A DNA stretch of 63,956 bases, counting the filler, from Raillietiella orientalis (Eukaryota), in assembly GCA_036172245.1 (NCBI GenBank). It is 3 parts of 3 records of this genome, joined end to end, with 100 filler letters (N's around TTAATTAATTAA, not from the genome) between each part and the next. Parts side by side here need not be neighbours in the genome. Positions count along the whole stretch, not along the records: positions 27,858 to 54,998 come from JAYWIR010000213.1; 2 more parts are not named here. One strand, 5' to 3'. Each line of letters opens with the position of its first letter. Position 1 is the first letter of the stretch. The notes under the pieces were generated by a model. That model did not search any database, was not told the origin of the DNA, and saw only the letters and a program-made list of their open reading frames with translations. Of the stretch, positions 27,701 to 55,098 are shown piece after piece. A program made the translations under genes and the position numbers.

Positions 27701-27757
27701 AAATTTGGACCAAATAATGAATCAGAGCGAAGGAGAAGATTGCCATTCTCATACCGA
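15760..27757. repeat. Satellite A subfamily A2 (278/281-bp monomers)
   Basis: Diagnostic variants absent upstream: GCCATTCTCA(T/A), a +3 insertion in CCACGCCCCCCTAATG, GCGGCAATCC and GGTTCCTGAAG. There is a local 1121-bp 4-mer period (19704/20825; 20291/21412). Confidence 0.9.
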
Positions 27758-27857
27758 NNNNNNNNNNNNNNNNNNNNNNNNNNNNNNNNNNNNNNNNNNN
27801 NTTAATTAATTAANNNNNNNNNNNNNNNNNNNNNNNNNNNNNNNNNNNNNNNNNNNN
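27758..27857. other. Artificial contig-joining spacer N44-TTAATTAATTAA-N44
   Basis: Exactly 100 bp; the palindromic 12-mer puts stops in all six frames; an identical spacer lies at 54999-55098. Confidence 0.98.
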
Positions 27858-30809: not shown

Positions 30810-30952
30810 GTGCAGAACTTGTGAGAACCCAAGGACTTGATAGTGGGGAAAAAAAAGTGCTAATGGTATGCATGAGATTGTAGTGTGAATGTTTTTATAG
30901 AAAAATTTTAGAAAAATAAATTTACCCCACCCCTCGTGGGACTTGGGGAAAA
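27858..30952 (+). mobile_element. L1/Tx1-like non-LTR retrotransposon, family X copy 1 (cut at contig edge; inserted in ORF1 of Y copy 1)
   Basis: ORF2 remnant and 3' UTR, AATAAA at 30915-30920, terminal hairpin CCCCA...TGGGG then AAAA; the 3' part is collinear with 42832-43930 on the other strand. Confidence 0.9.
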
Positions 30953-32296
30953 CTACTGAGTCGGCGATGGGGCGACTGCATGCAGCGTGCTTTTGCTCGT
31001 CGCGACGCTGCTTTTTACGGCTTTCGTAGCCTTTGTAGAGGGACCTGCGCTGCAGTGGGGCTGTCCGGAACTCGGAAGGGACAACGGAACAGGGCAAGAA
31101 GTCTTCGCACTGTTGCGATCTTCCTGTTTTCCTACCTTTCCCTCCAGGGTGTTACGGAGATTTCCTGGTTCCTGGCTCCGTGGGCAGCGAGGGAGGGCAC
31201 GGCACGCGTCAAACCCTCGCGCTCCTTTTTAATTGGCTTTCCCGCCGTAAATTTTTACTTTTCGGGGCGTTGTGGGCGGGGATGCTTTATTTTCATCCGC
31301 GGATCGCTTGTTGTTTTTTCAGAGTTTTTGCGGACGACGCTTCTTAGTTGTCGCTGCGGCTTTTCGTGCAGTGGTCTCTTGAAACCGACGAATTTCCGCT
31401 GCGGTTCTTTTTCTTGCAAGTACCGGGCACTGTTTGCTTTCGTGCCCGGAATCTTTGCAATAGCGGCATCTTGGAGAGGGACACTCTTTAATTCGGTGCC
31501 CATCCTTGCCGCACTGCTCGCACGCGCGAGTCTGGCCTATGAACCACAGGTGAACGACCGTGCCGTTCAAATGCTGCTGCTTAGGCACAACACGCCTGTT
31601 CGCCACGGTGATCCGCGCGGAGGCTTGTCCAATGTGGACAGAGGGGAAATCCTTCAGAGGATTAGGCCTTCTCCACAAAGCGTGCACGGTGGCGAACTTC
31701 GCCAGCACGCATACGAAATCGCGGTCGGAGATTTCCGGTTCGATGTCGCACAATTGAACGACAAAAGAGTCGTCCATCGCGGTAGGTAGGACTTCCTTGC
31801 CATTGATGGTCAACGGCGCACGGAGAAGGCGCTGCACAAGTGCTGCGTTCTTGCACCGAATCTTCGTATATTCCATCCTGCTAGCAGGCATTATGGAAAG
31901 GAGTTCCTCCTCGCAAACGCCGATCAGGACGAGCTCATCGTTCAGCTCACGACCGATTCTCCCTTTGAGGGGCCCACTGACCTTATAACGGAGTGCAGGC
32001 ATGTATCCTGATGACACATATGCCTGGAACTCCGCATCGCAGAGTCTATGTCTTTGGGATTTAACGGCGGGGTAACTACTCACCGGAGGCGAGGAAACCA
32101 TTACGGAGGATGCGGCCAATTCAAGTGCAGCTGGAGTGCATCCAGTGGCATGCTCCTCCACACTAACCTCTGCACTGGCCATGTTCCACTATGCTACTTG
32201 GCAGATTGCACGGGAACACACAAGTGCAAGCGAAAACGCAGGCACAAAGTTGCCCAATCGTTGGCGCCGATAGACGCGGAAACACGTCTGCACTGC
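30953..32296 (-). mobile_element. Family Y copy 1: 5' end, 5' UTR and 5' part of ORF1 (inserted in the APE of Z1a)
   Basis: Starts GCAGTGCAGACGTGTTTCC, like the 5' end at 41475; collinear with 41475-42831. Confidence 0.85.
31319..32182 (-). pseudogene. ORF1 (gag-like nucleic-acid-binding protein) with two CCHC zinc knuckles; premature stop
   Basis: ATG-initiated 287-aa open frame with CEQCGKDGHRIKEC and CRYCKDSGHESKQC, preceded by an RRM-like region as in Tx1/L1 ORF1s; homology continues past the stop to 30953. Confidence 0.88.
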
Positions 32297-33606
32297 ACGA
32301 GCGTAAGAAATTAAACGGTTCTCCGGAGGGCGGCTATTGTACAGGTGTGGGAGTTCGAAAAGTTGCGGTGTCGCCTGCCTGCTTCGGCCAGCCGTCGAGG
32401 CCGCGGCTCGGGGCGTGCGGTTCGACGATCACGGTCGTGTGGGCCAGCTGACTCTTAGGTGGTCCGACTCGATCGATCTGATCGTCACGAACGTGTACGA
32501 ACAGAGCTGCGCGGACCTGATGACCAAGAGGGCAAGGTAAGAGTTTTTCCTTGCCCTCCGCCGAGACTGGCTGACCAAAGCAGGAGTGTGGAATGCCCAT
32601 CTGGTTGCAGGCGATTTCAACGTTTGCCTGAAACCAGATGCGCAGAATCCCGAGCGTGACCTGGTCAACGAGGTGTGCATGTCGGTGCACACCTGTAATT
32701 TGTTGGCCAGTGCACCGGGGATGGAAGACAGCATTGACCACGTGTTTCTTGACGAGCACCTGTGCCCTCGCGTGGGCAGGCGCGGCAAGTTACCGTGCGA
32801 GCTGTCCGACCATCGCCCGCTAGAACTCGAGATCGATCCGCGCGACAGGAGCCCCCCCTCGTCAGCGTGGCGTCCCCCAGGAAACTGACTGAAGCTCTTG
32901 GACGCGGCGGAACATCTCCGTACGTTCATACGAAGCTTCAGGCTGCGGACACTCCAGGATTGGGACCGCTTCAAGCGGTAGGAAATGGAGTTCTGCAACC
33001 AGTTCCCTCTCCACCGCCTACCTACGGGTTTTAACACCGGGGTCCGTAAAGAACGAGCCTACATACAGGCCCGTCATTACGCCAGAACCCTTGACATCCG
33101 CAGGCTGTCGGAATGCAAAGCGGGAGCAGAGAGGCAAGCCTGGCAGTCCGGATCGGCCAGCTTGCTGGACGATCAGGGCCAGGAGCACTCGGCACCTGCC
33201 CAAATCCGCGGCCTGCTACGGAGTTACTTCTCCTCCCTGTATGCCAGGGCACCTCCGGAAAGGAACGTCTCACGACTCCTGCTTCAGGAAGGCGCTCCAG
33301 CGATCGGATAGGAGGAGAGAAAGATTCTCGATGAGCCTTTCACGATGGACGAGATCCTCTCGGCCATCGGAAAGCTCAAGAGGCGAAAGGCTCCAGGGGA
33401 AGACGGCCTGCCCGCGGGGTTTTACCAAACTTTCGCGGCTGAGCTTACCATCCTGGTACAGCAATTCTCCTTGCTGATACGCGCGACTGGTGACGTTTCC
33501 TCCTCGTTTAGTTCGGCAAAGGTGGGGCTCCTCCCTAAGAGAGATCTGAGAAGCATGAATAACTGGCGTCCCATCACAATAGTGAATGCTGACTCCAAGT
33601 CGCTAG
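32297..33606 (+). mobile_element. Family Z1 copy a, part 1: ORF2 APE, linker and start of RT (disrupted)
   Basis: VTNVY, AGDFN, SIDHVF, LSDHRP, YFSSLYA, KAPGEDG, NWRPITIVNAD; collinear with about 53670-54970 (-). Confidence 0.9.
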
Positions 33607-33956
33607 TTGCCACCCGGTCAAGCCAGGGCGTTTATTTCAAATTCTCTATGATTCGTGGTACGAGGCCCCACTACGGCCTGCTCAGCTGGACCTGCTAGGT
33701 CGCCGGTACATAGACCGGCGCGACTCTCCTCGGCAGCGAAAGGGGATGGGGAAAAAAGAAAAAGAAAAATAAACCATAAAAAACAAAAAGATTTGTTAGG
33801 GTTGGGGAGGGTTTACTGACCACTGGGAAGAGGGTCCGTCCTTTGAAGGTTGCCCTCGAGGTCCGTCCGTATGGTTTCTAGGTGGGGCCATCTGGTCGCA
33901 GTCCGCAGGTAGCGGACTGGCAGTACGACGGCATCCCTGTCGTGGCTCGGTCTTCT
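33607..33956 (-). mobile_element. Family Z2-like short 5'-truncated copy (ORF2 tail and 3' UTR) inserted in Z1a
   Basis: Collinear with 37834-38183; stop at 33813, AATAAA at 33636-33631, conserved terminal hairpin; about 65-70 bp of host missing at the junction. Confidence 0.85.
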
Positions 33957-36218
33957 AACGTTGCTCCTGGGCGAAGCATGGAGGCGAACCTCTTCCACCC
34001 TTCCACGTGGCAAGAGCTCAGACAAGAAAGAAGCTTGCTGCACAGCCGGAATTGCGATGCGTGCGCCGGCAAGGGGTCGGATGGTCGGGTGGGGGAGGGA
34101 GCCCTTGCGGTCGCAATCGACTTGCGGAAACCATTCGATTGCGTCTACCAGAATCTTCATCTGGAGCTTCTGGAACGCTTGGGCTTCCCGGTTTCATTAG
34201 TGGCCTATCTGCGCTCCTGCTGGCGCGACGCGCTTTTCAGCGTTTCTTTCAGCGCCCAGACCGTGCACGGCGTGCCGGTGCGGCGTACGATCCGGCAGGG
34301 AGACAGCCTGAGCCCCTTGCTCTTCAGTAACTACTTTGAATTGGTACTGAGAGAGTACAGGGGAACTCTGGCGCACCTGCCGCACGACTGTGCCGGTACG
34401 CCGGCCGTTTCAGCGTACGCGGACGACCTTCTGCTGCTGCTTCCTATGTCCACCTTGGCCTCGGCGGTCGAGGAGTTCTTCGACCTGCTGCATCGGGGAA
34501 CCGAACTTACGGTGAACGGAGCGAAGTCGTCCGTGATGCCAGTTGGTGCGGCGTGGGCAGGGCAGCAGGACTGGGTCCGTTTGAGAATCCTCACGGTGAG
34601 GTACTTCAAGTACCTTAATGTGCCGTTGGGGGACTACTCACCTGCGGAAGCGTGGTCCTGCTGCCTCCAAAAAGTAGAGACGGCGATCGGTCCGCTCCGA
34701 AGCGGCAGGTTTTTCCTGCCTGAACGGGCCGCTGTTTGGAACACGTTCGCGGCTCCAATCTTTCTCCCCCTGCTATTTGTTTGCCCTTCCACAGAGAGGA
34801 TTAAAATGGGGACAAACGACCTCCTCCGTATCGCTCTTCGGGGCAACGGGAGGGCCCGAGTTCGCTTAAAGGACTTGTGCGCTCCTCGTAGGGATGGTGG
34901 TCTGGGCCTCTCGACGCTGGAGCGGTTGAAGCGTGAGCTCCAGTTCCGAATGTCAGGAATTTTTCCAGAGTTGTTGTGCACCTGTTGGTGCGTCCCTGCA
35001 CGTCTCCTTCTCCAGCAAGCCACCGGCAAGATGGGACTGACGTCGTTTCTTGCACTGCGTCGCCGCGTCAACCGATGCGGGCTTCAGCTACGGAGGGTGG
35101 CTGGCGCTGTACCGGAAAAACCCAGGATTGGTCTCCTGTCGCCCTTTGAACGGTAGTGCCTGGTTACAGGAAACCGTTCGAACGTGGGGACAGTTCGGCA
35201 TGCAACGCTCCTAACAGGAACGAAGGTTCATGTTTGGGGGTTACAGAAGTTGCACGCTCCACGAGATCCTGGAGGATCCAAAGAATAGAGCGTGGGCAGG
35301 AAGAACCCCTCTCGCTGCTGCGCTGCCCTCCCTGATGAAAGGTCTGGAAAGCGATGTTGCGGCGAAGTGGGAGGTTACAGTAAAAATCTCCGGAAAGGAT
35401 AAGAAGATCGGAGAGTGAAAGACGGGCCAGTTAACAGACACTGCGTCCCCGAGTACGCCTCCCAATGGACTTCTGCGCTGGAGCGTGCTGCTCGATGTTC
35501 CTATTGAACATCTGAAGTGGCCCCCTGTGCTCATCAACACTTCCTCCTTCCCCTTGAAATGGCAGTTGTCTGCTCTCCTGTTGCAGCACTTGGGACTCTC
35601 CTGCAACTCCCGCCGACACCACTGGACCTGGGGAGCAGTGGACCCCAATTGCGTCAGGTGTGGGGAACGGGAGTCCCTCCCCCTCCTGCTAGTGGATTGT
35701 GTTGCCCATCTGCCCCTTTGTTTTCGCTTTGCCGCGGCCATCGGAATCCCCTGCGGCACTGAAAGCCCTCTTCGTTGCCGACGCCCTTCGGCCAGCATCC
35801 TCGTTAGCAGCTTTGTGCTGCCTACGCGGGATCGTCACCGCTTGGAGCAAGGCTACGGGAGGACAACGCGACCAGGGTGCCATACAGCCAGCCTCCCAGT
35901 TCCTGAGGAGAGCGTCGTGATGTCCCCACCTGGATCCAAGCATGCAGCAAGAGCTTTGCGGCTTCCTGCAAAGGATGCAACGGCCTTACCAGCTACAGTG
36001 ATCAGTTCCTGTACCCTCCCAGTTTTTTGTTTCGTTTTGGTTTTGTTTTTTGTTTTTCCCCCTCTCCCCTGCTGCCGTGTTGGACCGTGCCGGTCGGCGT
36101 ACTGGTGACCTGGGACGCTCTGTGTTTCTTCGTGCGTGGCTGGAGCAATGGTCCAGCCACCGCACGTCTTTGTAAATGTTTATTTTAGAATAAACTCATC
36201 GGCGAAATCCGGGTGAAA
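33957..36218 (+). mobile_element. Family Z1 copy a, part 2: RT, Zn finger and 3' UTR (3' end inserted in W)
   Basis: DLRKPFD, RQGDSLSP, YADD (34416), GGLGL, CVRCG; stop at about 36001, U-rich UTR, AATAAA at 36189-36194. Confidence 0.92.
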
Positions 36219-36920
36219 ATCGGACACCTTGCGAAGATCGCCCGGGACCTCCAAGGAACCCGGGGCTTCCTCAGGCGGAATGCAGCGACGCAGTTTTTGC
36301 AGCCGCAGATGCGGTTGCTTGGCTGTCGTGCGCCACGCGACGTTGCAGCTCGAGCCACGTGCGCAGGAAGAACAGGTTCGCCTCCATGGACCGCCCGGGA
36401 ACAGCGTAAGACTGCTCCGGACTTACCACGGATCCAGCGATCCTGCGTAGGCACGCTAGGCAGAGCCTGGGGAACAACTTGACGTCCGCATTCACCAAGG
36501 TGATGGGACGCCAGTTGCTTAAATGGCGCATGTCTTCGCCTTTCGGCAAGAGACGCACCCTTGCTGAGCGAAACGAGGCCGGTAGATTGCCCGTCTCTCG
36601 CATCAGCGCAGAAAGCCTCAGCACCAGGGGGATGAGTTTCGCCGCGATGCACAGTAAGAACTCCTCAGGCAGACCATCCTCACCTGGCGCCTTGCGCTTC
36701 TTGAGGCCCGCTATGGCGGAAGACACTTCTTCCGCCGTGATGGCGAGTCAAAAGTGACGCTTTCGTCCTCGTCGACCGCCGGGGAATCCGCCGGCAGGAG
36801 CAGCTCCGAGAGACTGCGTTCCTTCGGCTCCCTAGCATACAACTAGAAATAGTAGCGCTTTAAGAGGCGGCGAACTTCGGCCGCGCCCGAGCACTCCAGG
36901 CCCTGGTCGTCGAGCAGAAT
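36219..36920 (-). mobile_element. Element W: 5'-truncated Y-like ORF2 fragment (linker to RT motif A)
   Basis: LLDDQG, KAPGEDG, NWRPITLVN, ends at DLRKVSD; shares ERSLSELLLP.D.P.VDE with Y (about 45645) rather than with Z1/Z2. Confidence 0.85.
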
Positions 36921-37833
36921 TGGGGGGTCGGCTGTACTGGTAACGCGGCTGCCGCAACTCCTGTGGGGTCGTGTTCCTCGTCAAGTCAGCAATGGACGCT
37001 GCCGTAAAGTGCGTACGCTTTATGACGACGTTCGGGTCGGCCAGGTGATTCTCAGGTGGTTCGACTCGATCGATCTCATTGGCACAAACGTGTATGCTTC
37101 CAGCAGCAGACAGGGCTACAGCGAACGTAACGGGTTGCTGGAAACCCTGATGCGCGATTGGTTGGCGGAAACGAATGTGCGATAGGTTAACCTGATAGCG
37201 AGAGATTTCAATCTTCGCCTGTTAACAGGTGAGCCGGGAACACAATGGGAACTCGATGAACGAGTTGTGCGCCGCCATGCGTGCGCACAACTTGTTCGCA
37301 GATGGAAGGGGAATGGTCCGCAGTATCGATCGCGTCTTCCTCGACGCTGACCTGTGTACGCGTGTCGCCAAACAGGATAAGCTTGCGACGACGCTGTCGG
37401 TCCATTCCCGGTGAACTTTGGGGATGCGTCCGAGCGACAAAGGACCGCCTTCCAGGGTGCGGCATCTGCCGGGAGACTGTACGCGACTCTCAGCTGCGAA
37501 GGAACACCTTCGCGTATTCCTGAGAGACGTTACGCTTCAGAGCTTTAAGGACTGGGACCTCTTTATCGCCTCGTTTCGGGAATTCTGCGAGCAGTTCCCC
37601 CTGGACCGCCTGCCCTTCGGATTTGGCGAGGGCCTTCGCAACCTTCGGCCCTATTTACAGGCTCATCGGTACGAGAGATCCCCTAATGTCCGTCGCCAGG
37701 CCGAGTACTGCGCCAGGGCCGAACGCCAAGCCTGGCAAACCGGGTCGGCCAGCTTACTGGACGACCAGGGACGGGAATTTTCTACCGGCGGCGGTACGCC
37801 ATCTCGTGCGGAATTATTATTCCACCCTTTACG
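36921..37833 (+). mobile_element. Element V part 1 (Z2-like; outermost visible host): APE and linker
   Basis: GGRL, TNVYA, DFN, SIDRVF, WD.F; ends at RNYYSTLY. Confidence 0.85.
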
Positions 37834-40800
37834 TTGCCACTCGGTCACGACGAAGCGTTTATTGTAAACTCTTTTTACAATTTGTGCTACTAGGCCCCAC
37901 TACGGCCAACTCAACAGTACCTGCTGGGTCGCCGGTATGCATACCGGCGCGATTCTCCTCGGCAACGGAAGGGGGTGAGGAAAAACGAAAAGAAAAATGA
38001 AACAGAAAAACAAAAAGAAGTTGAAGGGCGGCGAAGGGATTACGGTCCACTGGGAGGGGTGTCCATCCTTTCTAGGATGCCCTCGAGTTCCGTCCTAATG
38101 ATACCAAGGTGGGGCCATCTAGTTGCAAGCAGCAGGTAGAGGACTGCGAGTTCGACGGCACCCCTCTCGTGGCTCGGTCTTCTGTAATCGCTCCAGCTCA
38201 TCACAATACCTCGGATGCAGCAGAGTGCTGCCAGGGCGGCAGCTGCTCGCAGGGCATCTCGCACGAAAAGAAGCCGAAAAACGTCTCTGGGCTGGCTGCC
38301 CTCCTGCAGCCGTAGGGAGGTGCCAAAAAGCTCCCACAGGGATCGGAGCGCAGCACAATTAACAAGGAGGTGGGCGAGGGTTTCCCGCTCTTCACACCTG
38401 AAGCAGGCGGGATTCACTCGACCCCTAGTCCAGTGGTTGCCGCTTGCGTTGCAGGGTAGACCCCAATGCAACAGCAGAAGTGCCGACTTCTGCCACTTCA
38501 GAGGGAGGTTCGTCGATCCAAAGAAATCCGGGAGCCACATCAGGTCATCCATCGGGATGCCGAGCAGCTCGCGTCTTCTCTTTAGACCACGCAGGAGGAC
38601 ACTTCGGGTAGTGGCATCGGCCAGCTGCGCCGTGGTCCAGCCGCTTAACTTCTTCTCTCTGCCTGCGATTCGGCAGTAGACTTGCCACCTAGGCGTGCGG
38701 CTGCTAAAGAGCGCCCTCCTCAGGAAGGGCATCGCCGTAGCTAGGGGCGTGGTCTCGGCCCACGTGCTCCGGGCAGAACATTGAAAAAAGGTCCGCAGGC
38801 TGCAGCAGGCACGGTTGTAGAATCGCAGGCAGTTGTAGTTTTATTCTCCTTGGGCATTTAACCTCGCCCACGTTCCAACAGATTCCTCCAGCCATGCGCA
38901 GGACTTGGCGGGGCTGCATGCAATCCAGACGTTCTTTTTGACTAATGTTGCCATGCGCCCGAGCAGTGGGCCGCATCTTCTTATCTTCTGGCCTGGGTGC
39001 AGAAGAAAAGACGCGAGTCCATCGCAGCGGGACACACGGCTGGCTAAAAGGCAGGCCGGAATGCACCAAAGGGTGCTGCACATCTTCGCTGCGATGGACA
39101 GGGTACGCCATCGCAGCTGAGACTCCACTCGCTCCAGCGTCAAAAGGCCGAGACCGCCATCCCGACGCGAAGCACACAAGTCCATCAATGGGAGTCGAGG
39201 CCTCCCTGTTCCCCAAAGGGCGATCCTTAGTAGGTCCTTCGTCCGATTCTTCAACTGGGACGGGACGGGGAAACAAAAAGCAGGGGGCGGAGGATGAGAG
39301 CGGCGAACGCATTCCACACCGCGGCCCTTCCCTTTAGGAGAAACCTGTCTTTCAAGAATGGGCCCATCGCCAACTCTACTTTCCGGAGACGACCAGACCA
39401 CATTGCCGAAGGGGAATAGTCGCCCAACGGCACACCAAGGTACTTTAAGCACCTCGCCGAGGGGATCCCCAAACGTATCCAGTCAGGCCGTCCGACATAC
39501 ATCGCAACAAGGGCTAGCACCGAGGACCTCGCCTTATTTACCCGTAGTCCAGTCCCGCGGTTTAGCAGATCGAAAAAATCCTCGACTGCGGCTGCCGGGG
39601 CGGACATGGGCAAAAGGAGCAGAAGTTCATCGGCGTAAGCCGTTAGGGCGGGCGTACCAAGGCACGAGCACGGCAAGGTAGGCAAACTCACCCTGTATGC
39701 TCTCAGCATCAACTCGAAGTAGGAGCTAAAGTGCAGGGGACTCCTGCTGTCGCCCTGCATGATGCTTCGTCGCACCGGCACGCCGTACACGTGTTGACTA
39801 CTTTAAGCGACGTTGATTATAGCATTGCGCCAGCAGGAGCGCAGGTAGGTTAGTAGGGAGGGTGGGAAGCCCATGCGACTCAGGAGCTCAACAAAAGCTC
39901 CTGTTCCACGCAGTCGAACCCTTTATGCAGATAGACCTCGATCTCTAGGGCCCCTTTCTCCACCCCGGGGTCCCTTTCCTGCCCGGCCAGCGCCTTAAAA
40001 GCGGGGTAGCAATTCACACGCTCTAGATCATGTTTACTGCTCTGCCAGCAAAACCATGTGCTCGCGAAGAACACGTTGGCGTCCATACCTCGCCCGCGAA
40101 CAGCGTTAGCCTGTACCGGGCTAATAACGGATTCTACCACCTGTCCTAGACGCGACGCCCACAGTCCGGCGATCAGCTGGGCGTCCGTATTTACAATGGT
40201 GATTGGACGCCAGTTGCTGAGTTCTCTGAGGTCTCCTCCCTTGGAAAGGAGCCTCACTCAGGCTGACCGAAACGAGGCGGGAACATCGCCTTCGTCTCGG
40301 ATAAGCCTTGTCAACTGAAGCACCAGGGGTGCCGACTCTGCCGCGAAGCATAGAAAAAATTCCGCGGGCAGGCCGTCCTCCCCTGGTGCTTTTCGCCTCT
40401 TGAGCCTTTTAATCACGGCGTGAATTTCGACGGTGGTAACAGGCTCCTCGAGGCTTTCCTTCTCCTCCTCCCCTTTTACCGGGGCACCATCCAGAAGCAA
40501 GCGTCAAGTAGCATCTTGTTCCAAAGGCGCCCTGGCGTAGAGGGAGGAATAATAACGCCGCACGAGGTGCCGTATTCTAGCCGGAGCCGAATGCTCCCGG
40601 CCCTGGTCGTCCAGCAAGCTGGCCGACCCCGATTGCCAGGCTTGACGTTCGGCCCGGCTCCGTACTCCGCCAGGCGACGGATGTTAAAAGTCCTTGCGTA
40701 ATGGCGAGCATACAAATACGCTTGTTCGTTACGGACCCCATCCTTAAATCCGGGGGCAGGTGGTGCAAGGGAAACTCCTTGCAGAACCAGCGGACGAAGG

Positions 40801-41474
40801 CCTTAAAAAGGTCCCAGTCACCGAGATTCCGGAGGGTGACGCCTCTCAGGAATTAGCGAAGGTGTTCGTTCGCACCTGAGAGTCGCGTCCATTCCCCAAG
40901 CAGCCGCCACGCCTTGGAAAGGGGTCCCTTGTCGCGCAGGATACCTCGATAATTAGCCGGGAATGGTCCGACAGCGTCGACGCAAGTCTCCCCCGAGTGC
41001 CGAACCCGTGGACACAGGTCAGCATGCAGCAAAAAATGATCGATGCTGATAGCCATTCCCGGGAGCTTCATCAACAAGTTGCGCGTGCGCATGACAGCGC
41101 ACAACTTGTTGGCCGTCCGTTCCTGTGCGTGGGCATCAACTGAGAGCAGGCGCAGTTTCAAATCGCCAGCAATTAGGTGCGTCCTGTGGAAGTTCGCTTC
41201 CAATTGCCAGTCGCGCCTCAGAGTTTCCAGGAACGGCTTTCGTTCCTGGTACCTGAAAGGACCGCTCGCAGCGTACACATTTGTTACGACGAGGTCGATT
41301 GCGTCGTACAATCTGAGAATCAGCTGGCGGACACGACCGGCTTTGTCGAAGCGCACGCCCTTCACGGCTGCGTCGACCGCCGGCTTCACGAAGAACGCGA
41401 CATCACAGGTTTTGCGGGAGCCCTATTGCCACACTAGCCGCCCTCCTGCGATCCTTTCGATCTCCTGCGTTCGC
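37834..41474 (-). mobile_element. Family Z2 full-length copy, 3' part: most of ORF2 and 3' UTR (disrupted; YADD mutated to YADE)
   Basis: TNVYA, AGDL, SIDH, KAPGEDG, NWRPITIVN, QGDSRSP, YADE (about 39630), YLGVPL, CFRCE..H...C; stop at 38040, AATAAA at 37863-37858. Confidence 0.92.
41460..41474. repeat. Target-site duplication of Y copy 2 (partner at 48453-48469)
   Basis: ATCTCCTG--CGTTCGC vs ATCTCCTGGGCGTTCTC; the host APE sequence rejoins across it. Confidence 0.8.
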
Positions 41475-42831
41475 ACAGTGCAGACGTCTTTTCGCGTCTC
41501 TCCGCGTCCTCGATCGAGCATCTTTGTGCTTGCATTTTCGCTCGCACTTGTGCGTTCCTTGGAAGTAAACGACGAAGCGTTTTGCAGCATGGCCCTTCTG
41601 GGAATGGTGTGAAGGAGAAAATCGTTGAATCCAATTCAATAGGAATAAAAGCGCCGCATCCACCGTGACAATTTCCTCGCCTTCGGTGAGGAGCTACACC
41701 GCCGACACCTCCCAGGAAGCAGGACCCTGCGATGCGGAGTTGCAGGCTTATGTGACATCCGGCTACATGTCCGCACTCCGTTATAAGGTCAGTGGGTTCC
41801 TTAACGGGAGGACCGGGCTTGAGCTCAACGACGAGCTCGTCCGGATCGGCGTTCGGGAGGAGGAGCTTCTTGCCATCATGCCTACGGGCAGGATGGAATA
41901 AACCAAGATACGGTTTAAGGACGCGGCACTTGTGCAGCGTCTTTTCCGTACTCCGTTGTCCATCGGTGGCAGGGAAGTCCTGCCTTTCGTGATGGACGAC
42001 TCGTTTGTCGTCCAATTGTGCGACATCGAGCCGGAAATCTCCGACCGCGATGTCGTAAGTGTGCTGGCAGAGTTCGCCACCGTGCACGCTCTGTGGAGGA
42101 GGCCAAATCCTCTGAAGGATTTCCCCTCTGTCCACATTGGACAAGCCTCCGCGCGGATCACCGTCGCGAACAGGCGTGTTGTGCACGAGCAGCTGCAGGT
42201 GAACGCACGGTCGTTCACCTGTGATTTCTAGGACAGACTCGCGCGTGCGAGCAGTGCGGCAAGGAGGGACACCGAATAAAGGAATGTCCCACCCGGAAAT
42301 GCCGCTATTGCAAAGAAACCGGGCACGAAATAAAAAAGTGCCCGGTCCTTGCAAAGAAAAAGGCAGCAGCGGAAGTTCGTCGCGTTCAAGACACGAACCC
42401 ACGAAAGGCCGCTGCCCGCAAGAAAAAGCAGTGTCTGCGGAGTCTCGGCATAAGAGCCAGGCAATACGCGACAATACAAAAGGCGTCCTCACACGCAACG
42501 CCCCAAAAGGGAGAAATCGCGGCGGGGAAGCCAATTAAAAATTGGCGCGAGGGTTCGACGCGTGCCGTGCTTGCCCTCGCTGCCGCACTGGGAAACACCT
42601 CTCCAAGCCAGGAACCGGGAAATATCCGAAGAACCTCGGTAGGAAAGGTAGGTGAGCAAGAAGATCGCCATAAGGCGAAGACTTCCAGCTCCAACCCGCT
42701 ATCCCTGCCCAAACCGGCAAACCCTCAATCCAACGTAGGGATCTCTGCGGCGCCTACGAAACCCGTAGCGAGCCGCGGCGCGCCGCGCAAAAACACGCTG
42801 CACGCAGCCGCCCCTTCACCGATTCTGCAAG
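41475..42831 (+). mobile_element. Family Y copy 2 (full length), 5' part: 5' UTR and ORF1 (disrupted)
   Basis: Starts ACAGTGCAGACGTCTTTTC, ATG at 41589; encodes near-identical peptides to 31319-32182 (MDDSFVVQLCDIEPEISDRD, RRPNPLKDFPSVHIGQASARITV). Confidence 0.9.
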
Positions 42832-43930
42832 TTTCCCGAAGTCCCACAAGGGGTGAAATAAATTTAGTTTTCAAAAATTTTTCTTGAAAAACATTCACAC
42901 TACAGTCTCATTCATACCATTTGAACTGTTTTTATCAATCCGAAGTCCATGGGTTCACAAGTTCCGCACTCATGGTGGGTTTCCTGCTGTTTGGTCCCGA
43001 ACGTCGTCTTCTGCCCTCTTCCGGATGAATCGGTACGTCGAAGCTTAGATTTTCTCACAGTTTCCAGTGCCAATTTTCCTCTTCAGGAGCCCTTGTAGGA
43101 TCTCCATCGGTGGTGCGGCTCTCCTGGCTTTCCTCATTTTCCACCACCGCACAAGTATGGCGGTTATGAAGAGGGCAATGGTCGTCCTCACCATGAGATT
43201 GTAACAGAAAACATTACCATCCCCCTCAAACATCCCCGCGAGGACTTCCATTACGGATCCGTTCGTAAGTCCGATGATCCTTTTCAGGATCAGCCAGTCA
43301 TGCAGCAATGTGGGAAACGTCAAGACGTGGAGTCTCGTGTCGTTGTCTTCACATGCCGTGCAGTCTCAATCTTCCCGTCTTCCGGTATAGTACTGCAATC
43401 GAGACCCACTCAGGATTCCTTCATGATGAAACATCAGGAGATCATCCTGGGTGCCCGGTGGAAGGTCACTTCTCCAGAGCATCGTGCCAATAGCTAGCAA
43501 GTTGATCCAAATACTTCCATAGCGATCGGCGGATTCCTTGAGGGCACTGATGTCACGGTCTTCTTCCCGAACTAATCTTCGGAGGTTTGTTTTGAATACC
43601 CTGGATCACGCGAATTCGTTGTGGTAATGCCACACCTCGCGGGTCATGTGGATAAACCTTGCTAACATCATCTCTATATACCTAAGAATACGAGTGTGAT
43701 GTAGGTACCCTCCTCGTCTCCACTCCTGGATTCGTTGTAGAGTAACACTGGACCGCTGGTGAATCCAGCTTCTCGTGTCCGGCGAGACAGGAAGCATTCA
43801 AGGGATCACCAAGATGGACTTGTCCTGCCAGAGTTCAATACTTCTCTGCACGATCTTGATTCTGTGCTTTCGCACCAGCCGATGCTTTCTGGAACAGCTT
43901 GGGTCGATTTTTATCCATTCGCCTGCTCGG
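42832..43930 (-). mobile_element. Family X copy 2, 5'-truncated (1.1 kb), flanked by a ~20-bp target-site duplication
   Basis: Collinear with about 29849-30952; flanks are CCCTTCACCGATTCTGCAAG (42812-42831) and CCCTTCACCGACTAGGCAAG (43931-43950), 17/20 identical. Confidence 0.92.
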
Positions 43931-46900
43931 CCCTTCACCGACTAGGCAAGAGAGGAGCAATCTCGCGACAGCCAAGAAGGTGACTCCGCTTCCTCCCTTT
44001 AAAGGCGTGGCGAAAGCGACGCCCCTAGCAGCAAAAACTCCGGAAGCTTCCGAGACGAAAGTCGCGAAAGCGTCCAAAAATCGTGACGGAGAATGGAAGG
44101 TTGTGGAGAGGAAAAAAGAAAAATCTCCCAAGAATGCTTCGCAACCTCCATCTGCGAACTCCTTGGAAGCAAAGAACAGCCGCGTGAACAAGAAAACACG
44201 CGCGGAGGGTTCTTCTGCCTAGGAGAAAAAGACAGCGCCGTCAACGCTCGCAAGTCCGCCTCTGTCAACGCCGAGAAGACGATTCCTGTGCGATCGGACG
44301 GATGCAAACGCACGTCGTTTGCGCAAGCATCAGACTCCGTAAAGGAGCCCGATAACGCCCCTCAACGACCAGTTACTCGCGCAGGAGCGAGCGCCCGCAG
44401 GTCTGAACCCTTAGGCGTGACACGCTCGCCGAAGAACGGCGAGTGCTCACCCCGGAACCCACAGCTTCTGCACCTTGGGAGGAGCACTCGATTACGCGCA
44501 GGACGGTGGAGGCCGGTGGCGACCGCGCACTCCAGCCCCTCGTGCTGCTAAAAGCCCGCTCGCCGGATGAGGCGAGCACCACCGCCTCGCTTTCCCAGCC
44601 GTGATGAGGGCAATCGCGTCTACTCGTCGTGTTGTTGTGCCGTGCTGGAACGTCAAAGGTCTCCAACACGACGAGAAGTGGCGATTGTAGCTAACGCTCT
44701 GCGCGCCTTCGACTTTACGCCCCTGCAGGAGATTCACAGCATCTCCGGAGACCAGGCTGCCGAAATCGAACGGCGTGCGGGCGGAATGCTACATTATAGG
44801 TGCGGCGTCGCACTTACGTGTAGCTTCGCTTTCCTCGTACGAGGAACTTTGGCGGGAGCGGTGCGCGGCGTTCGCTTCGACACGGAAGGCCGAGTGGGAC
44901 AGCTTGTACTCAAGTTGTTCGACTCGATCGACCTTGTCGTAACGAACGTGTACGCGCCGAACGGTGCTGGACGAGGGCCGAAAGGATTGAGTTCTTTGGT
45001 ACCGTTCAGAGCCAGTGGCTCACTCGTTCTCACCCTAGTGTGGCGTATGTCATTGCGGGGGACTTTAACGTCCACCTGCTGACCGAGAATAGCGCACACA
45101 AAAGGGAAAAGTTGCTAGTGGAAGAGATGTACGCGTGCGTACACGTGTGTAACTTGTTCGCTAACGACCCTGTTATGGCGACATCACCAGGACATGTATT
45201 ACTTGATGAACACTTGCTCTCTCGAGTGGTTCGGAGAGGTCCCATTCCGTCCGTGCTTTCAGACCACAACAGGCTCGAGTTCGAGTTGCTCCCGCCAGGC
45301 AAGGGGCCTCCAAACTACGTTTGGAGGATACCGGCAGACTGACTAGGGCACCCGGAGGCGGGGTAGCATCTTCTCCAGTACCTTCGCGGCTTCGCCATAA
45401 GTGAGCTCGCTGACTGGGACGATCTGAAAAGATGTGTCCGCGAGTTTTGCTGCCAATTTTCCTTGCACCAGCTTCCGCGCGTCTTTGGAGAGGGTGTAGC
45501 CAACAGAAGAGCTTTTCTGCAGGCCCGCTTCTACTCCAGGCGCGCAAACGTTGGTCGATTATCCAAATACAAGGCCAAGGCTGAGTGCCAGGTCTGGCAG
45601 TCTGGAGCGACAGTTCTGCTCGACGACCAGGACCGAGATCAACGGAACGCAGTCTCTCCGAGCTGCTTCTGCCGATTGATGCACCTTTTGTAGACGAAAA
45701 GAAACGCGCGCGTTTCAATGAGCCCTTCACGGCAGAAGAAATTTCTTCGGCCATCTCGCGGCTCAAGAGACGAAAAGCGCCAGGCGAGGATGGTCTCCCC
45801 GCAGAATTATTGCAGTGCTTTGCGGCGGAGCTCATCCCCCTGGTTCTTCAACTCTCGTCGCTGATGCGAGACGCGGGCGATGTCCCCGCCTTGTTTCGCT
45901 AGGCGAAGGTGCGTCTCCTGCCGAAAGGCGGAGATTTGCGCCAACTGAACAATTGGCGTCCGATCACCTTAGTGAATTCGGACGTCGTGTTGTTCTCGAA
46001 ACTTTGGGTGGCGCGGATGGGGAGTATCGCGGAGTCTTTGGTAAGTCCGGAGCAGACCTACGCTGTTCCTGGGTGGTACATGGACTCGAACCGCTTATTC
46101 ATCCGCACATGGCTGCAATTGCAGCATCGCATAGCGATGGATCGTCGTGCGGAAGCGACGCCTTCGATCTCTCACCCACTGAGGCGCGGGTCGCAAAGGG
46201 AAACCTCGGAAGCCTTGGCGGTTGCAATAGATTTGCACGAAACTTTCGATTGCGTGAACCAAAAGCTTCTTCTTGAGCTCTTGTAACGTCTGGGCCTCTC
46301 GGCATCCCTGTTGGCTTACTTGCGCACCTGCTGGCGACACGCGATTACATCCATTGTTTTCAGTGGCTGTCACGTGTACGGCGTGCCGGTTAGGCGAGGA
46401 ATTAGGCAGGGCGATAGCTTAAGCCCGCTGCTCTTTAGCATCTATTTTGAAATGATGCTGGAGGCTTACAGGGTGACGCTAGCCAACCTGCCGAGCTCCT
46501 GTCCAGGTACGCCGGCCGTGGCAGCCTATGCCGGTGACCTGCTTCTCCTGTTGCCCGTGTCCACCAAGGCGGCGTTGCTTGAAGATTTCTTGAAGTTGAT
46601 CCGTCGAGTTGCGGGCGTGAGCGTCAACAGGAGGGAGAGCATGGTTGTTTCGGTTGGAGCGACGTGGGAGGGACAGTCCGACTGGATGCGCCAGGAGATC
46701 CCAACGGACAGGTACCTAAGGTACCTTGGCGTGCCGTTGGGCGATTTCTGCATCTCAGAAGCGTATTCGGACTGCCTTCGGAAGGCAGAGCATGCACTTG
46801 GCTTGTTCAGAGGAGGCGAGTTCGTCTTGGCGGAACGGGCCAGCATCTGGAACACCTTCGTTGCCCCCCTCCTCCGCTCCCTGTGTTTTGTTTGTCCACA

Positions 46901-48452
46901 CCCCCCAGGAAGTCTAAGTCTTGGCGCAGAGCCTTCTACGCAAAACGTTGTGGGGCGCTGCAAGGTCCCGCGTAACACTTAAAGACTTGGTGGCTCCACG
47001 TCAGGATGTAGGCTTGGGCATCCTAGAATTAAAAATCATCGAGCTGCAAGTGCAGTTTAGAATGCTGCTGCTTTCTGCCAAGCTGTGATGTACGCCGTGG
47101 TGCTTACCCGCACGACTTATACTAAGGAGCTGCACGGGAAGCGAGGGACTGCTATCGTTGCTGTCGCACTTTCGGCACACCAGAATAGGTTTGTCTTCCC
47201 GCTGAGGCAGCTGTCCTCATTGCTGGAAGCCCAATGTTGATCTCCTGCCTCCCCATGAACATTAATTCATGACGGCAGGAATCTTTTTCCATCGTGGGCA
47301 GCTTCCGAAGGAACGTGCCCGGAAGGTCTTCGGCGCATGCGACTTCTCCTTAGTCATCCAATGGACGAAGTCATGCAGGACAAGAAGATGTCGGATCGTC
47401 TGGCCGCCACACCGCTCGCCGCAGCGCTGTCTGCCCTAAGGGCAATCAACGACAGTTGCCTGTTGGCGAAATGGGAGTTATCCAGCACAATAGCGGGAGT
47501 CTGTAAGCTCCTCGGCTGCTAGACGACAAAGTAGCTGGTGGAAACTGCCACTCCTCGTAATCGAGAGAAGGGCTTGCTTCGGTGGAGTGAACATTTAAGT
47601 GTACCCCCCGAAGAGATAGTTGTCCCCCCGTTTGTTTGCACAGCTCCGTGTTCCCCTTAAAGTGGAAACAAGATGTGCTGCTCTTTTTACACTGGGGCTC
47701 TCACTGTAATCGGCAGCGAAGCATCGTTTCCGGGGGAGCTGCTTTGCCAAACTGTTTAAGGTGCGGTGATATCGAGTCTTTTTCGCACCTCTTGATGGAC
47801 TGCGGTGACCTCCGTGAACTGTGGCGAAGGCTAATTTCAGCCATTCTGCCGCAGGGAGGCACTGCCATTGATGTGCTGCGGCGCTTCTTCAGGAGGAATG
47901 GATTTTCGGTAGGCGCGATTGTCGCAACCATGTGTTGCATTCGCGGACTCGTGAAGGCTCGCTACGCCCTGGAGTTGTCAGCGCAGCGAAGGAAGGCTCA
48001 CCGGTTTGCAGCAGAATCCATGAAAAACGCTGCTAGGTGGTCTCATCTTCGTGACGAGGTCAAAAAGACATCGCGGGCATCCACCACCGGTTTACAGGCT
48101 TTTAGGAACTGCTAAATCCCGTTACCACTTCGTCCTGAAGCCCACATATACCCCTTCCCTGCTCGCTTTGCTAAAATACCGGTGCCATTACTATTATAAC
48201 GGTGAGAACCAGAGCGATCCCAAAGACTTTTGTCTCCGCGTCCCCCATTGATTTCATTTTATTTTGTTTTTGTTTGTTTGTTTTCCCAGTTCCCACAAAC
48301 TGATCTGTGTAATTCTGGCCTGCTTGCCAGCAATATTCTTTTAATAGTTGTGCCGTTGTCGGTTGGGGGCATGGTCCCCAACTGGTTTATTTCATATATT
48401 TATTTCTATTGTATTTGTATGAAATAAACGCCCCGGCGTGACCGGGTGAGAA
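43931..48452 (+). mobile_element. Family Y copy 2, 3' part: ORF1 C-terminus, complete but disrupted ORF2, 3' UTR
   Basis: CWNVKGL (about 44644), LQEIH, TNVYAP, AGDFN, SDHN, KAPGEDG, DLHETFD, RQGDSLSP, YAGD (46527), YLGVPL, CLRCG..H...C; stop at 48115, AATAAA at 48423-48428. Confidence 0.92.
48423..48452 (+). terminator. 3'-terminal signal: AATAAA followed by 24 nt containing a CCCGG-loop-CCGGG hairpin (also at 36189-36218 +, 33607-33636 -, 37834-37863 -, 51320-51349 -)
   Basis: Five copies from three families share the motif and spacing; none is followed by a poly(A) tail. Confidence 0.8.
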
Positions 48453-50684
48453 ATCTCCTGGGCGTTCTCTGCGGTGATCACGTCGATATCCTGCAGGAGA
48501 GCCAGGTCGAAGTCACGCGAGGTGGTGGCCGTGTCTCGTCTGTTGCCTTCGTCACGCAGCCCGTTCACGTTCCAACAGGACACGCTTAATTGACCGCGAC
48601 AGGTGAGCAAGGGTGTTACTCCTGGGAAAGTGGCAATGGGGCTCCCGCCACCCGGTCGGGCGGGACGGATGGAGGAATGGGATCACCGCGCACCGGTTCT
48701 CCCTCCTCCATGGGGGCCGATTCTTTTGCGAACCGCAATCGTTGAAGGGGGCGGGTTTCACGCACCTGCTCCCCCTCTTCCATGGGGGCCAATTTGTCGG
48801 CTGCGCTGGACGGCAAGGGGGAAGCGGTTGTCAAATGTCTGCTCCTTCTCTTCCATGGTGATCTCCTCAGGAGGTCCCACCGTTGGAAGAGGGCGGCAAT
48901 TACTTACCTTCTTCCCCTCCTCCTTGGGGGTGCTCAGCTGCTCTGTAGCAAAGGGTGGAAAAATCGCTCTCTACGTTCCCACTCTGCCGGCTTTCCCCTC
49001 GGCTGCCGGTGCTTCCCCCTCCTTCTTCGTCGGGATGCGCCTCTTCGGATTCTTTGACTTCCGTCCAGTCTTTTTCGAAGGCGCCTCCGCGGAGGAGGAC
49101 GCACTCCCGGCATCCAAGTCGTGGTCGCCTGTCGAAAGTGCCCTGGTCGCTGCCGGCCTTCGCAAGAACTTTCGTGCGCCGTTCTCACGCTCCGCGAGTT
49201 CGGCTGGAGCTCTTCTGCCGCCTGTTAGATGGCGGCGTCCTCGATTGCGGCGAGCTCCTCGCTCGGCTCTCCCTCTTTTTGCACTGAGGGTTCACCCTGC
49301 GCGGTCGTGACTTCGTCGTCAACGAGGTGGGGATATCTCTCCGGTGGCGTCTCGGGGACCAACACACGCTCCAAAGCGACCGAACATTCGCGGAGCAACG
49401 CGCGGCGTTGTCTCCTATTTAAGGGAGATGTCGCAGATTCCGGTGTGGTGCCTTCTGTGTTCTTTATTTTTTTCGTTTTAGTCTCCGCCTTATGCCAGCC
49501 CTTGCTCTCTCTATCGTCGTCGCGAGTATCCTTGACCGGCGCTTGCTGCACGGGTTCGGGCACTGGCTGTGGGTTCCGCCTCTCGGGTGTCTCCTTAGGC
49601 TTTTCCGTTCGCATCACGCGTTTCCCTTTGGCTTCATTCAAGGCAGGGGTTGCCCGGGTTTCGGGTTTAGAACACAGCTTCCGCAGGTGTCCCTTTTCGC
49701 CGCAGTAGAAGCACTGGATGTGGGGGCATCTTTTTTTAAGGTGCCCTGTGGCATTCCAGTGTCCACAGTACTTGGGCTTACCCACGTACCAGACGTCGAC
49801 GACCTGGTTGCCGAATTCTAGTTTGTGGGGAAGCCCATCGTTTTCGTTGACGGTCAAACGCGCTGCAGCCATGCGACTGAACAGTCTTCAGTAACTTATG
49901 AAGAAGTTTGGCTTGGTCCATACCGCGTGCAACGTACCGAATTTACTTAATTTCTCCTTCACGCCGGTTTTTGACATGCGGAGGGATACTCCCGTAAGAT
50001 GCGCTCCCACAGAGCGATCCTCGCTTACAGGGAAAACCTTTCTGGCTTCCAGCATGAGAGGGGTATTCAGCAGGCGTTCAGCCAGGCTTGCATCTCTGCA
50101 AGTGAGCTATACCCGCTTGCCCCCACTGAGCACTGAAAGGCGTTCCAGGTCCTCTTCTTTCACGTCTATCCGCTGCAATTCCCTCTCGAAATCGCGGCCG
50201 TTATTTTCAACGAACAGATCTCCTACCTTGTAAATCAAGGAGGGCTTGTATCCTTGTTCCAGGTAGGCGCGCTGTTCTGCTAAGGCTGCAGGAGATGGCG
50301 TTGCAGCCACGGAGCTCTAGGTTTTCGTGGATGAAGCAGACGGATCCAAATACGCGGTTGCCCCCTTTTTCAAGGGGGCACTTGCGGCGTTTTGCACCAA
50401 GGCGGTTGCCCCTTTTTTTCAAGGAATCGGTACCTCTTGTTTCCGGAGGGGTGGTTGCCTCCTTTTTCAAGAAGGTGGTTGCCCTCTCCTCCGTGGGGGC
50501 GGTTGCCCCCACCTATGTGGGTTGGGGAGAGGAATCATCCTCTTCCCCGCCAACTTACATCGCGGTGTCCTCAAGTATTCCTGCCATTTGACACCGGCGA
50601 TGAACCACTCACTAACACACTAAAAAAAAAGAATGAAACTTCGAAAACTCGCTCGGAAGAAGAGCAGAAAAAACACGTGCGCAC
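48453..50684 (-). mobile_element. Family Z2 full-length copy, 5' part: 5' UTR, ORF1 (50587 to 48616, disrupted) and APE N-terminus
   Basis: 5' end GTGCGCACGTGTTTTT; knuckles CGHWNATGHLKKRC (degenerate) and CFYCGEKGHLRKLC; SCWNVNGL..LLQD..ENAQEI, continuing at 41474. Confidence 0.88.
50353..50510 (-). repeat. Degenerate 24-bp (8-codon) tandem repeat in the N-terminus of Z2 ORF1
   Basis: GGCAACC recurs in 24-bp register over about 6.5 units; alternate units end in TTGAAAAA (LKK). Confidence 0.75.
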
Positions 50685-51319
50685 GCTCCCTTTATGCCAG
50701 GGCGCTCCCAGACCACGGTGCCTCTTGGCGCTTGCTTCCGGACGGTGCCCCGGCAATAGGGGAAAAGGAGTCGTTAAGCCTTGACGAGCCTTTTACCACC
50801 CGCGAAATTCTCGCCGCTATCAAAAGGCTCAAAAAACGTAAAGATCCAGGGGAGGACGGCTTGCCCGCGAAGTTCTTTCAGAGCTTCGCGAAAGAGCTGG
50901 CACTCCTGCTGCTTCAGTTGACAAGGTTGAGCCGTGACGAAGGCGATGTTCCCGAGTCGTTTCGGTCAGCCAGAGTGAGAATCCTTCCGAAACGAGGAGG
51001 CATCAGAGACTTCAAGAACAATCGTCCGATCACGATTGTGAACACGGACGCCAAGTTGGTTCCCGGGCTGTGGGCTTCGTGTCTGGGGCAGGTGGCAGAA
51101 TGCATAATTAGCCCGGAGCAGACTTATGCTGTTCCCGGACAAAGCATGGATGCCATCCTCTTCTTTGCAAGCACATGGCTTCACACGCGGAGGAGGTAGA
51201 AAGTAAGGAACGGTGATATTTGCAAAATAACTTAAAGGCGGTCTGTAAGACAGGAAAAGCAATCTAAGGGTTAAAATGGGGCCCTGGCGCTCGCAAACGA
51301 TCTACATAAGGCGTTCGAT
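50685..51319 (+). mobile_element. Element V part 2: linker to RT motif A
   Basis: Resumes at SLYARAL where part 1 stopped (STLY); KDPGEDG, RPITIVNTD; ends at DLHKAFD. The putative TSD is weak (9/12 match). Confidence 0.82.
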
Positions 51320-54998: not shown

Positions 54999-55098
54999 NN
55001 NNNNNNNNNNNNNNNNNNNNNNNNNNNNNNNNNNNNNNNNNNTTAATTAATTAANNNNNNNNNNNNNNNNNNNNNNNNNNNNNNNNNNNNNNNNNNNN
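54999..55098. other. Artificial contig-joining spacer N44-TTAATTAATTAA-N44
   Basis: Identical to the spacer at 27758-27857. Confidence 0.98.

Follow-up and report, generated by a model that had tools for sequence, protein, structure and literature searches.

Probable targeting of a fixed ORF1 site in one LINE by another LINE in a nested contig of Raillietiella orientalis

Two copies of a LINE family, here called X, lie at the same position in ORF1 of a second LINE family, Y, in a nest of retrotransposons from Raillietiella orientalis. With a probability of roughly 0.78, these are the products of two independent integrations of X by target-primed reverse transcription, both at a single fixed site of Y ORF1 and antisense to Y. 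X most likely aims at this spot, the sample being small, with two copies examined and both of them (2/2) at the one target sequence within the window. The window, i.e. the whole stretch of DNA analysed, comprises 63,956 bases in three pieces with N44-TTAATTAATTAA-N44 linkers between them, and the satellites need not adjoin the nest. The nest-bearing contig is 27,141 bp long, its ends being set by the two linkers, one at 27758..27857, abutting the left end of the first X copy at 27858, and an identical one at 54999-55098.

The first X copy (X1, 27858..30951, plus strand) contains the reverse transcriptase (RT), the rest of ORF2 and the 3' UTR, and is cut off on the left where the contig ends. 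It is followed by the 5' part only of Y1 (30952..32300, minus strand), namely its 5' UTR and the stretch of ORF1 that precedes the X site, and by A1 (32301..36240, plus strand), the outer host of Y1, whose ORF2 is present from the N-terminal part of the endonuclease domain on. The outer host of Y2 is element B, whose ORF2 part (38040..41469, minus strand, boundaries approximate) carries the endonuclease remainder, RT and zf-RVT. Y2 begins with its 5' UTR and the section of ORF1 ahead of the duplicated target (41470..42809, plus strand; zf-CCHC E 8.5e-7). Then come the left copy of the target-site duplication (42810..42831, plus strand; ORF1 tail codons ..A-P-S-P-I-L-Q), the second X copy, X2 (42832..43929, minus strand), the right copy of the duplication (43930..43950, plus strand) and the rest of Y2 (43951..48429, plus strand) with the ORF1 tail, ORF2 and 3' UTR. 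On the far side of Y2 the upstream part of B is found (48430..50600, minus strand, right boundary approximate), with the endonuclease N-terminus and an ORF1 with CCHC, and further on A2 (54953-51298, minus strand), which is 88.6% identical to A1. The X1-bearing and X2-bearing blocks form an inverted pair within the contig, with Y1 and Y2 as inverted repeats at a spacing of 10 kb.

When 29600-31600 was aligned with 42150-44150 in reverse complement, one colinear block resulted, with 1446/1771 identical positions (82%) and 24 gap columns. The X/Y junction contains no gap columns and the Y1 and Y2 junctions fall in one column; the first base of the Y2 duplication aligns with the fourth A of X1, so that the two positions agree to within 1 nt. 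The first-pass annotation had placed both X 3' ends at the homologous Y ORF1 position, which this ungapped alignment confirms. Both X1 and X2 are antisense to their Y host, and the site is located within the DNA for the low-complexity C-terminal tail of Y ORF1.

X2, previously described as a 1.1-kb copy with its own duplication, is indeed 1098 bp long (42832-43929) and flanked by a 21/22-bp repeat. The two copies of the repeat, GCCCCTTCACCGATTCTGCAAG (42810-42831) and GCCCTTCACCGACTAGGCAAG (43930-43950), agree at 18/22 bases, with 3 substitutions and 1 indel; the region had been recognised correctly, its left coordinate (42811) being off by one (42810). A repeat search of the window returned the same pair at 19/23 without gaps and with a spacing of 1119. 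At an edit distance <=4 the right copy matches the left copy alone, and no third copy of the 21-mer was detected on either strand of the 63,956-base window, which speaks against an internal repeat native to Y ORF1. No X-unoccupied copy of Y ORF1 is present in the window, B ORF1 (48430..50600) has no counterpart of the 21-mer, and the present-day target 22-mers of the two Y copies agree at 15/22 positions only. Homology to X reaches 43932, 3 nt into the duplication, as a GGC/GCC microhomology with the target. Where X2 stops, the frame of X1 continues open and colinear (..LLGRAGEWKK.., 29847), and therefore X1 truly carries about 2 kb more X, including RVT_1. The earlier description of X1 as at least 3.1 kb long stands as regards its extension past the X2 truncation, while its left limit at 27858 is the contig end at the linker. 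The far side of X1, the far side of Y1 and the duplication of X1 itself lie beyond the contig end, and X1 is only a candidate simple insertion.

In a profile search X1 matched RVT_1 (E 3.6e-12, 28573-29052), i.e. it encodes a LINE-type RT, and by tblastn it is colinear with residues 321-831 of P0008, a 1112-aa endonuclease and RT protein. The contig cuts X1 off some 95 codons before its first RT match, and the predicted endonuclease region would lie beyond that end. ORF2 of X1 ends with a C-terminal Cys/His motif, followed by a 140-bp 3' UTR with the end ..GGGAAA(A). Both X copies end in this way, with 3-4 A only and no poly(A) or simple-repeat tail; such a tail is not universal among LINE clades. 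Searching the protein collection with X, in the 'longer' length class only, yielded 9 distant matches at 22-29% identity, the best of which are unnamed or generic entries. PF03372 or PF13966 occurs together with PF00078 in 8/9 of these relatives, P0010 being listed with PF00078 only; for X itself this is an indirect pointer to an AP-type endonuclease. The C-terminus of X ORF2 as a query against metagenome contigs gave pattern matches only and none by tblastn, and no significant conserved 3' hairpin was found in X RNA (z -1.5 and +0.2). The hallmarks of target-primed reverse transcription are present in the 21/22-bp duplication of X2, its microhomology join and the coincident 3' ends of X1 and X2. 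At the amino-acid level the RT of X is 24-32% identical to those of the six other pieces that carry one, compared with 46-67% among those six, which bears out the earlier view of X as the most divergent family. X is a putative LINE lineage of the AP-endonuclease type, only distantly related to the other LINEs here. Its proposed status as always innermost and never a host holds for 2/2 copies, in one 27-kb contig only; neither of the 2 X copies in the window is interrupted by X. On the strength of these two copies X may be a specialist hyperparasite of Y, as proposed earlier.

ORF1 of Y1 consists of a core and two CCHC knuckles (zf-CCHC E 1.5e-5) and is accompanied by a short 5' UTR, the 5' boundary being accurate to about 15 bp from a three-way alignment with A2. 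In Y2 the ORF1 tail resumes in the same frame after X2 and reaches its stop at 44220; ORF2 comprises the endonuclease (about 44555-45339), RT (45576-46907) and zf-RVT (47591-48112), and the 3' UTR ends with ..GAAATAAAC. Y1 ORF1 had no match in the protein collection (lengths 158-506 aa only), and in metagenome contigs its relatives were sought with pattern matches as the only result and none by tblastn. The divergence between Y1 and Y2 shows purifying selection, with an omega of 0.53 in frame versus 1.08 and 0.95 off frame, a value reached in 2/1000 neutral simulations. Per 100 bp, identity lies anywhere between 62% and 94%, an unevenness with p 5e-11 (chi-square 74.4, df 12). This selection signal, together with the uneven divergence, indicates that Y1 and Y2 are separate products of diverged active Y lines.

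Y is found at the same colinear site in A1 and B, and A2 is unoccupied there. Beyond Y2, B carries N-terminal endonuclease codons (..WNVNGL..LLQDIDV..) and an ORF1 with CCHC. Both B flanks align to the same stretch of about 54 bp of the unoccupied A2, which does not fix the exact 5' boundary of Y or the length of the duplication that Y2 itself has in B; in the first 25 nt or so next to Y, A1 and B are more alike than A1 and A2. A1 and A2 are themselves both positioned just past the DLxKAFD codons of two RT fragments, and represent another colinear same-site pair. Since A1 contains Y and A2 does not, the combinations differ, which argues against one copied block.

Divergence rises layer by layer in the nest. 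The K2P distance is 0.146 [0.121-0.173] for X, 0.268 [0.235-0.302] for Y and 0.509 [0.460-0.567] for the outer hosts A1 and B, the intervals being non-overlapping and the rise about 1.8-fold at each step (Fisher tests, X vs Y 4e-9, Y vs host 9e-16); for the X 3' UTR alone it is 0.176 [0.107-0.263], overlapping the Y interval. CpG decay as the source of these steps was rejected, as the same steps are seen in non-CpG distances (X 0.134, Y 0.271, hosts 0.471). The dS of X is 0.241 (0.17-0.33) and that of Y 0.415 (0.33-0.53), X reaching Y in 6/2000 bootstraps; X is thereby shown to be younger than the Y1/Y2 split. Identity also drops precisely at the junction, being 85% on the X side (124/146) and 67% on the Y side (101/150; Fisher 4e-4). 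Between X1 and X2 the selection signal is modest and weaker than that between Y1 and Y2: omega is 0.45 in frame versus 0.86 and 1.16 off frame, with codon-position differences of 36/34/53, and was reached in 45/2000 neutral simulations, the simulated neutral mean being 0.69 and not 1.

The distance steps, the drop of identity at the junction, the lower dS of X and the selection on Y together make two independent insertions the best reading. On these grounds the proposal that X inserted separately on two occasions at a shared site of Y ORF1, which implies targeting, is upheld, and the earlier argument that one event followed by duplication poorly explains both lengths has become stronger than from length alone. 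It is very unlikely that a single X insertion into an ancestral Y was followed by copying of the Y-X or host-Y-X block, by segmental duplication or by mobilisation of Y with X as a passenger, and by later deletion of the 5' 2 kb of X from the second copy. The colinearity of the X/Y and Y/host junctions in both copies, and the inverted pairing of the two blocks in one contig, would suit such a history; however, a copied block should show one neutral distance, and the layers instead differ about 1.8-fold per step with non-overlapping intervals. At synonymous sites X would not come out as younger than the split of Y1 and Y2, Y1 and Y2 would not have diverged under selection and unevenly along ORF1, the deletion would have had to stop within 0-3 nt of the far duplication copy, and A2, the closest relative of A1 (88.6%), would not lack Y at the site. 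Even less probable is the transfer of a single X insertion between Y copies by ectopic gene conversion or recombination. Y1 and Y2, as inverted repeats 10 kb apart, are suitably placed for it and X is the most similar layer, but a conversion tract should include flanking Y, and here the identity of 85% gives way to 67% right at the junction. Nor does conversion produce 5' truncation along with a separate 21-bp duplication and a microhomology join, and X has no unusually high-identity tracts (heterogeneity of X1 vs X2 identity, chi-square 13.1, df 8, p 0.11). A 3' transduction of Y by X as the origin of the shared junction was rejected, as the duplication hugs X2 itself and Y2 is a full element, in frame, on the far side.

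Two independent insertions could also have been guided by RNA-DNA pairing and not by a sequence-specific endonuclease, a variant that we regard as unlikely. Transcripts of Y-resident X would read into Y, and their tail would anneal at a chance nick or break in another Y copy. The lack of a poly(A) tail, with the end ..GGGAAA(A) directly adjoining Y, is in line with this, as is the strengthening of site-specific integration of R2-type and other elements by co-transcription with the target, stated in the Discussion of PMC4494074. Against it, a first, untargeted entry into Y is required, the fixed stagger of 21-22 nt is not explained by pairing alone, and neither a significant 3' structure nor extended complementarity between X and the target was seen. 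With two copies the pairing variant is inseparable from nicking by an X endonuclease, and both may act together.

In the preferred reading of two targeted insertions, the sense strand of Y would be nicked first, just past ..CTGCAAG, with 42831 on one side of the nick and the nucleotide of present-day position 43951 on the other, and the freed 3' end would prime on the X RNA end ..GGGAAA. A second nick on the other strand, 21-22 nt upstream, would create the duplication. The X2 cDNA presumably was joined early at the GGC microhomology, leaving a dead 1.1-kb copy, and X1 would have been copied for at least 3.1 kb. We infer that the site is chosen through sequence-specific nicking by the predicted endonuclease of X itself, which would be encoded outside the contig; read-through Y sequence at the 3' end of X RNA may help by pairing.

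LINEs aimed at other transposons and self-nesting LINE clusters are already known. According to PMC4494074, Tx1-clade LINEs have as targets the piggyBac-type Tx1D of Xenopus (Tx1), Mariner-N4_AMi (crocodilian Tx1-Mar), LTR retrotransposons (Tx1-8_Crp and Tx1-4_AMi) and Harbinger elements (Tx1-9_AMi). X would resemble them as a putative endonuclease-type LINE with a probable preference for a fixed place and fixed orientation inside another transposable element, and in the use of independent 5'-truncated copies as proof of independent insertion; X may belong to their clade, and two X copies were counted compared with hundreds in that paper. The target of X is the coding sequence (ORF1 tail) of another LINE, which sets it apart from DNA transposons, LTR elements and RNA genes as targets. 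Zepp of Chlorella/Coccomyxa and ZeppL of Chlamydomonas, L1-type LINEs, also form LINE-only clusters by nested insertion into LINE copies with frequent 5' truncation, according to passages of PMC3446292 and PMC8226300; there, however, Zepp targets its own copies, whereas the element in which X resides, Y, is of another family (the RT of X is 24% identical to that of Y2). The same passages make no mention of a fixed ORF1 nucleotide as target. With R1/R2 the proposed mechanism shares site-specific nicks in both strands at a single defined sequence, made by an endonuclease that the element itself encodes, and a precise 3' junction, but their target is a host multicopy RNA gene and not a transposon; the flanks of X are not rDNA but Y ORF1 coding sequence with CCHC knuckles. 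R2 employs a restriction-like endonuclease. The endonuclease of R1Bm, an rDNA element, is treated in PMC1919474. No description of a LINE targeting the ORF1 tail of another LINE was found in searches of the open-access and bioRxiv literature.

The case is well resolved but small, with two copies. A LINE that homes in on a single defined nucleotide of an unrelated LINE's first gene would be a parasite of a parasite, disabling its host element on arrival, and as a natural sequence-specific retrotransposon X would offer an endonuclease and a target that are directly testable. The X site and the two other same-site pairs in the contig would provide a concrete mechanism for the growth of LINE-only islands. 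More tentatively, and with some doubt, X may be a node of a genome-wide web of separate LINE lineages, each with an evolved nicking specificity for a set position within some other LINE's coding sequence. If so, targets would not have to be conserved enzyme motifs, since X uses the fast-evolving tail of Y ORF1; an arms race would follow, Y escaping by change of its tail and X following, and hierarchies of LINE-on-LINE parasitism would build transposon-only islands with host genes untouched.

X1, the longer copy of the distant LINE X, occupies positions 27858-30951 on the plus strand and comprises the RT, the Cys/His-motif-bearing remainder of ORF2, a stop codon at 30807-30809 and a 140-bp 3′ UTR ending in GGGAAA(A). 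It is adjoined by its host LINE Y1, which lies on the minus strand from ~32300 down to 30952 and whose ORF1 (31322-32188) contains a conserved core and two CCHC knuckles; homologues of this ORF1 (lengths 158-506 aa) were not found at E 1e-3 or better in a collection of 5.8 billion proteins. The second copy, X2 (42832-43929, minus strand), lies inside Y2 (plus strand) between a left duplication copy at 42810-42831, GCCCCTTCACCGATTCTGCAAG, and a right copy at 43930-43950, GCCCTTCACCGACTAGGCAAG. This pair was also recovered by a repeat search of the window and is unique at an edit distance of ≤4 over the whole window on both strands. Past the right copy, ORF1 of Y2 resumes in frame for ~90 codons to a stop at 44220 and is followed by ORF2 and a 3′ end at 48429, so that Y2 is a complete Y copy interrupted by X2. 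Homology between X1 and X2 stops at 43932, the resulting 3-nt overlap with the duplication being a microhomology join, and the X1 frame stays open through 29847, the point matching the X2 truncation. Alignment of X1/Y1 with X2/Y2 gave a single block (1446 of 1771 positions identical), gap-free at the X/Y boundary. The truncated X2, its duplication and the 3′ junction shared with X1, as described in the first-pass annotation, were thus borne out, and the duplication pair was confirmed with its left coordinate corrected by one base.

A single X insertion copied along with Y as one block would have given every layer equal time, and hence equal neutral decay would be expected in all of them. The K2P distances are, however, 0.146 [0.121-0.173] for X1-X2, 0.268 [0.235-0.302] for Y1-Y2 and 0.509 [0.460-0.567] for the outer hosts, A1 of Y1 and B of Y2, which makes block copying improbable. 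These steps persist without CpG sites, and Fisher tests on the raw differences gave 4e-9 for X versus Y and 9e-16 for Y versus host; the K2P of the X 3′ UTR taken alone overlaps the Y interval. Transfer of X between Y copies by a conversion tract is even less likely, since the change in identity falls exactly at the X/Y junction, with 124/146 positions identical in the terminal 150 bp of X and 101/150 in the 150 bp of Y next to it (p 4e-4). At synonymous sites X is the younger of the two (0.241 against 0.415 for Y), the X distance reaching that of Y in 6 of 2000 bootstraps.

The omega of Y1-Y2 is 0.53 in frame versus 1.08 and 0.95 in the two alternative frames, a value as low being obtained in 2 of 1000 neutral simulations, and their identity per 100 bp spans 62%-94% (p 5e-11); judged from their sequences, Y1 and Y2 are products of diverged active lines. 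The same tendency, weaker, was seen for X1-X2 (omega 0.45 versus 0.86 and 1.16 off frame; matched in 45 of 2000 neutral simulations, with a simulated neutral mean of 0.69). Because the entry of X would postdate the separation of the Y1 and Y2 lines, X probably inserted twice, independently, and did so at the same position of Y in the same orientation (probability about 0.8).

The window itself looks like three contigs set end to end. An identical, artificial-looking spacer, 44 N-TTAATTAATTAA-44 N, flanks the LINE nest on either side (27758-27857 and 54999-55098), and six-frame-stop spacers of this type are used for joining separate contigs. Region 27858-54998 was therefore treated as its own 27,141-bp contig, with the nest ends as contig ends and the satellite-nest adjacency as possibly no more than a product of joining. 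According to Tandem Repeats Finder, positions 2-27757 are occupied by a satellite with a 278-bp unit and positions 55099-63956 by one with a 277-bp unit, self-identity being ~92% within either array; the two (27184-27757 and 55101-55666) are ~75% alike in direct orientation. G+C content is 53-59% in the LINE contig versus ~42-45% in the satellites. A Pfam scan of 54 stop-to-stop frames of this contig revealed decayed LINE retrotransposons only (RVT_1, two Exo_endo_phos families, zf-RVT and zf-CCHC), the sole other family being BTK-motif, whose weak match (E 0.0034) does not reach the cut-off of that family. Seven RT-bearing pieces were mapped by tblastn with distant database LINE proteins as queries. 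The RT of X is 24-32% identical to the other six, which share 46-67% among themselves, and its closest relatives in the databases, at 22-29% identity, are endonuclease+RT proteins. X is present in the window in two copies only, and the ORF1 of B, the one ORF1 of the contig besides those of Y, contains neither a counterpart of the X target nor X.

Further same-site pairs occur in the contig. Y1 and Y2 adjoin A1 (~32285-32305) and B (~41458-41485 and 48429/48430) at the same place, the N-terminal endonuclease codons, and are antisense in both hosts, which differ by a K2P of 0.51. A2 (54953-51298, minus strand), 88.6% like A1, is uninterrupted at the Y site over the 45 bp left before the contig stops (54953-54998). 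In the first ~25 nt beside Y, A1 and B look more alike than A1 and A2, as if the 5′ end of Y carried a copy of the target. A1 and A2 each terminate, antisense, directly after the D-L-x-K-A-F-D codons of RT fragments (36138-36839 and 50686-51340, respectively) that are only ~64-69% alike; these colinear junctions (36138-36340 and 51190-51400) form the third such pair. A and Y have a common 3′ ending, ..GAAATAAAC. Since partners differ between pairs, Y being present in A1 and absent from A2, repeated site-specific nesting fits and duplication of a block does not. A 350-bp stretch of A1 (33606-33956) is missing from A2, where only ~80 bp stand. It resembles (79%) another stretch 4 kb away (37833-38183) and could represent a further small insertion, located at the RT break point.

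In the established geometry of target-primed reverse transcription, the Y sense strand would be nicked first, after ..CTGCAAG; priming would occur on the X RNA end ..GGGAAA, and the second nick would lie 21-22 nt upstream of the first. As in the analogous R1 and Tx1-type elements (PMC4494074, PMC1919474), the target would be read by X's own endonuclease, the coding part of which falls past the contig end; site choice might also be aided, or alternatively made, by pairing of read-through Y sequence. LINEs homing to other transposons are described for the Tx1 clade in PMC4494074, and self-nesting LINE clusters for Zepp and ZeppL in PMC3446292 and PMC8226300. In the open-access and bioRxiv papers searched, no description was found of a LINE aiming at one fixed base in the ORF1 of another LINE. 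The case of X in Y is well resolved, yet it rests on two copies, both in one contig. X as a specialist hyperparasite of Y is a candidate reading.
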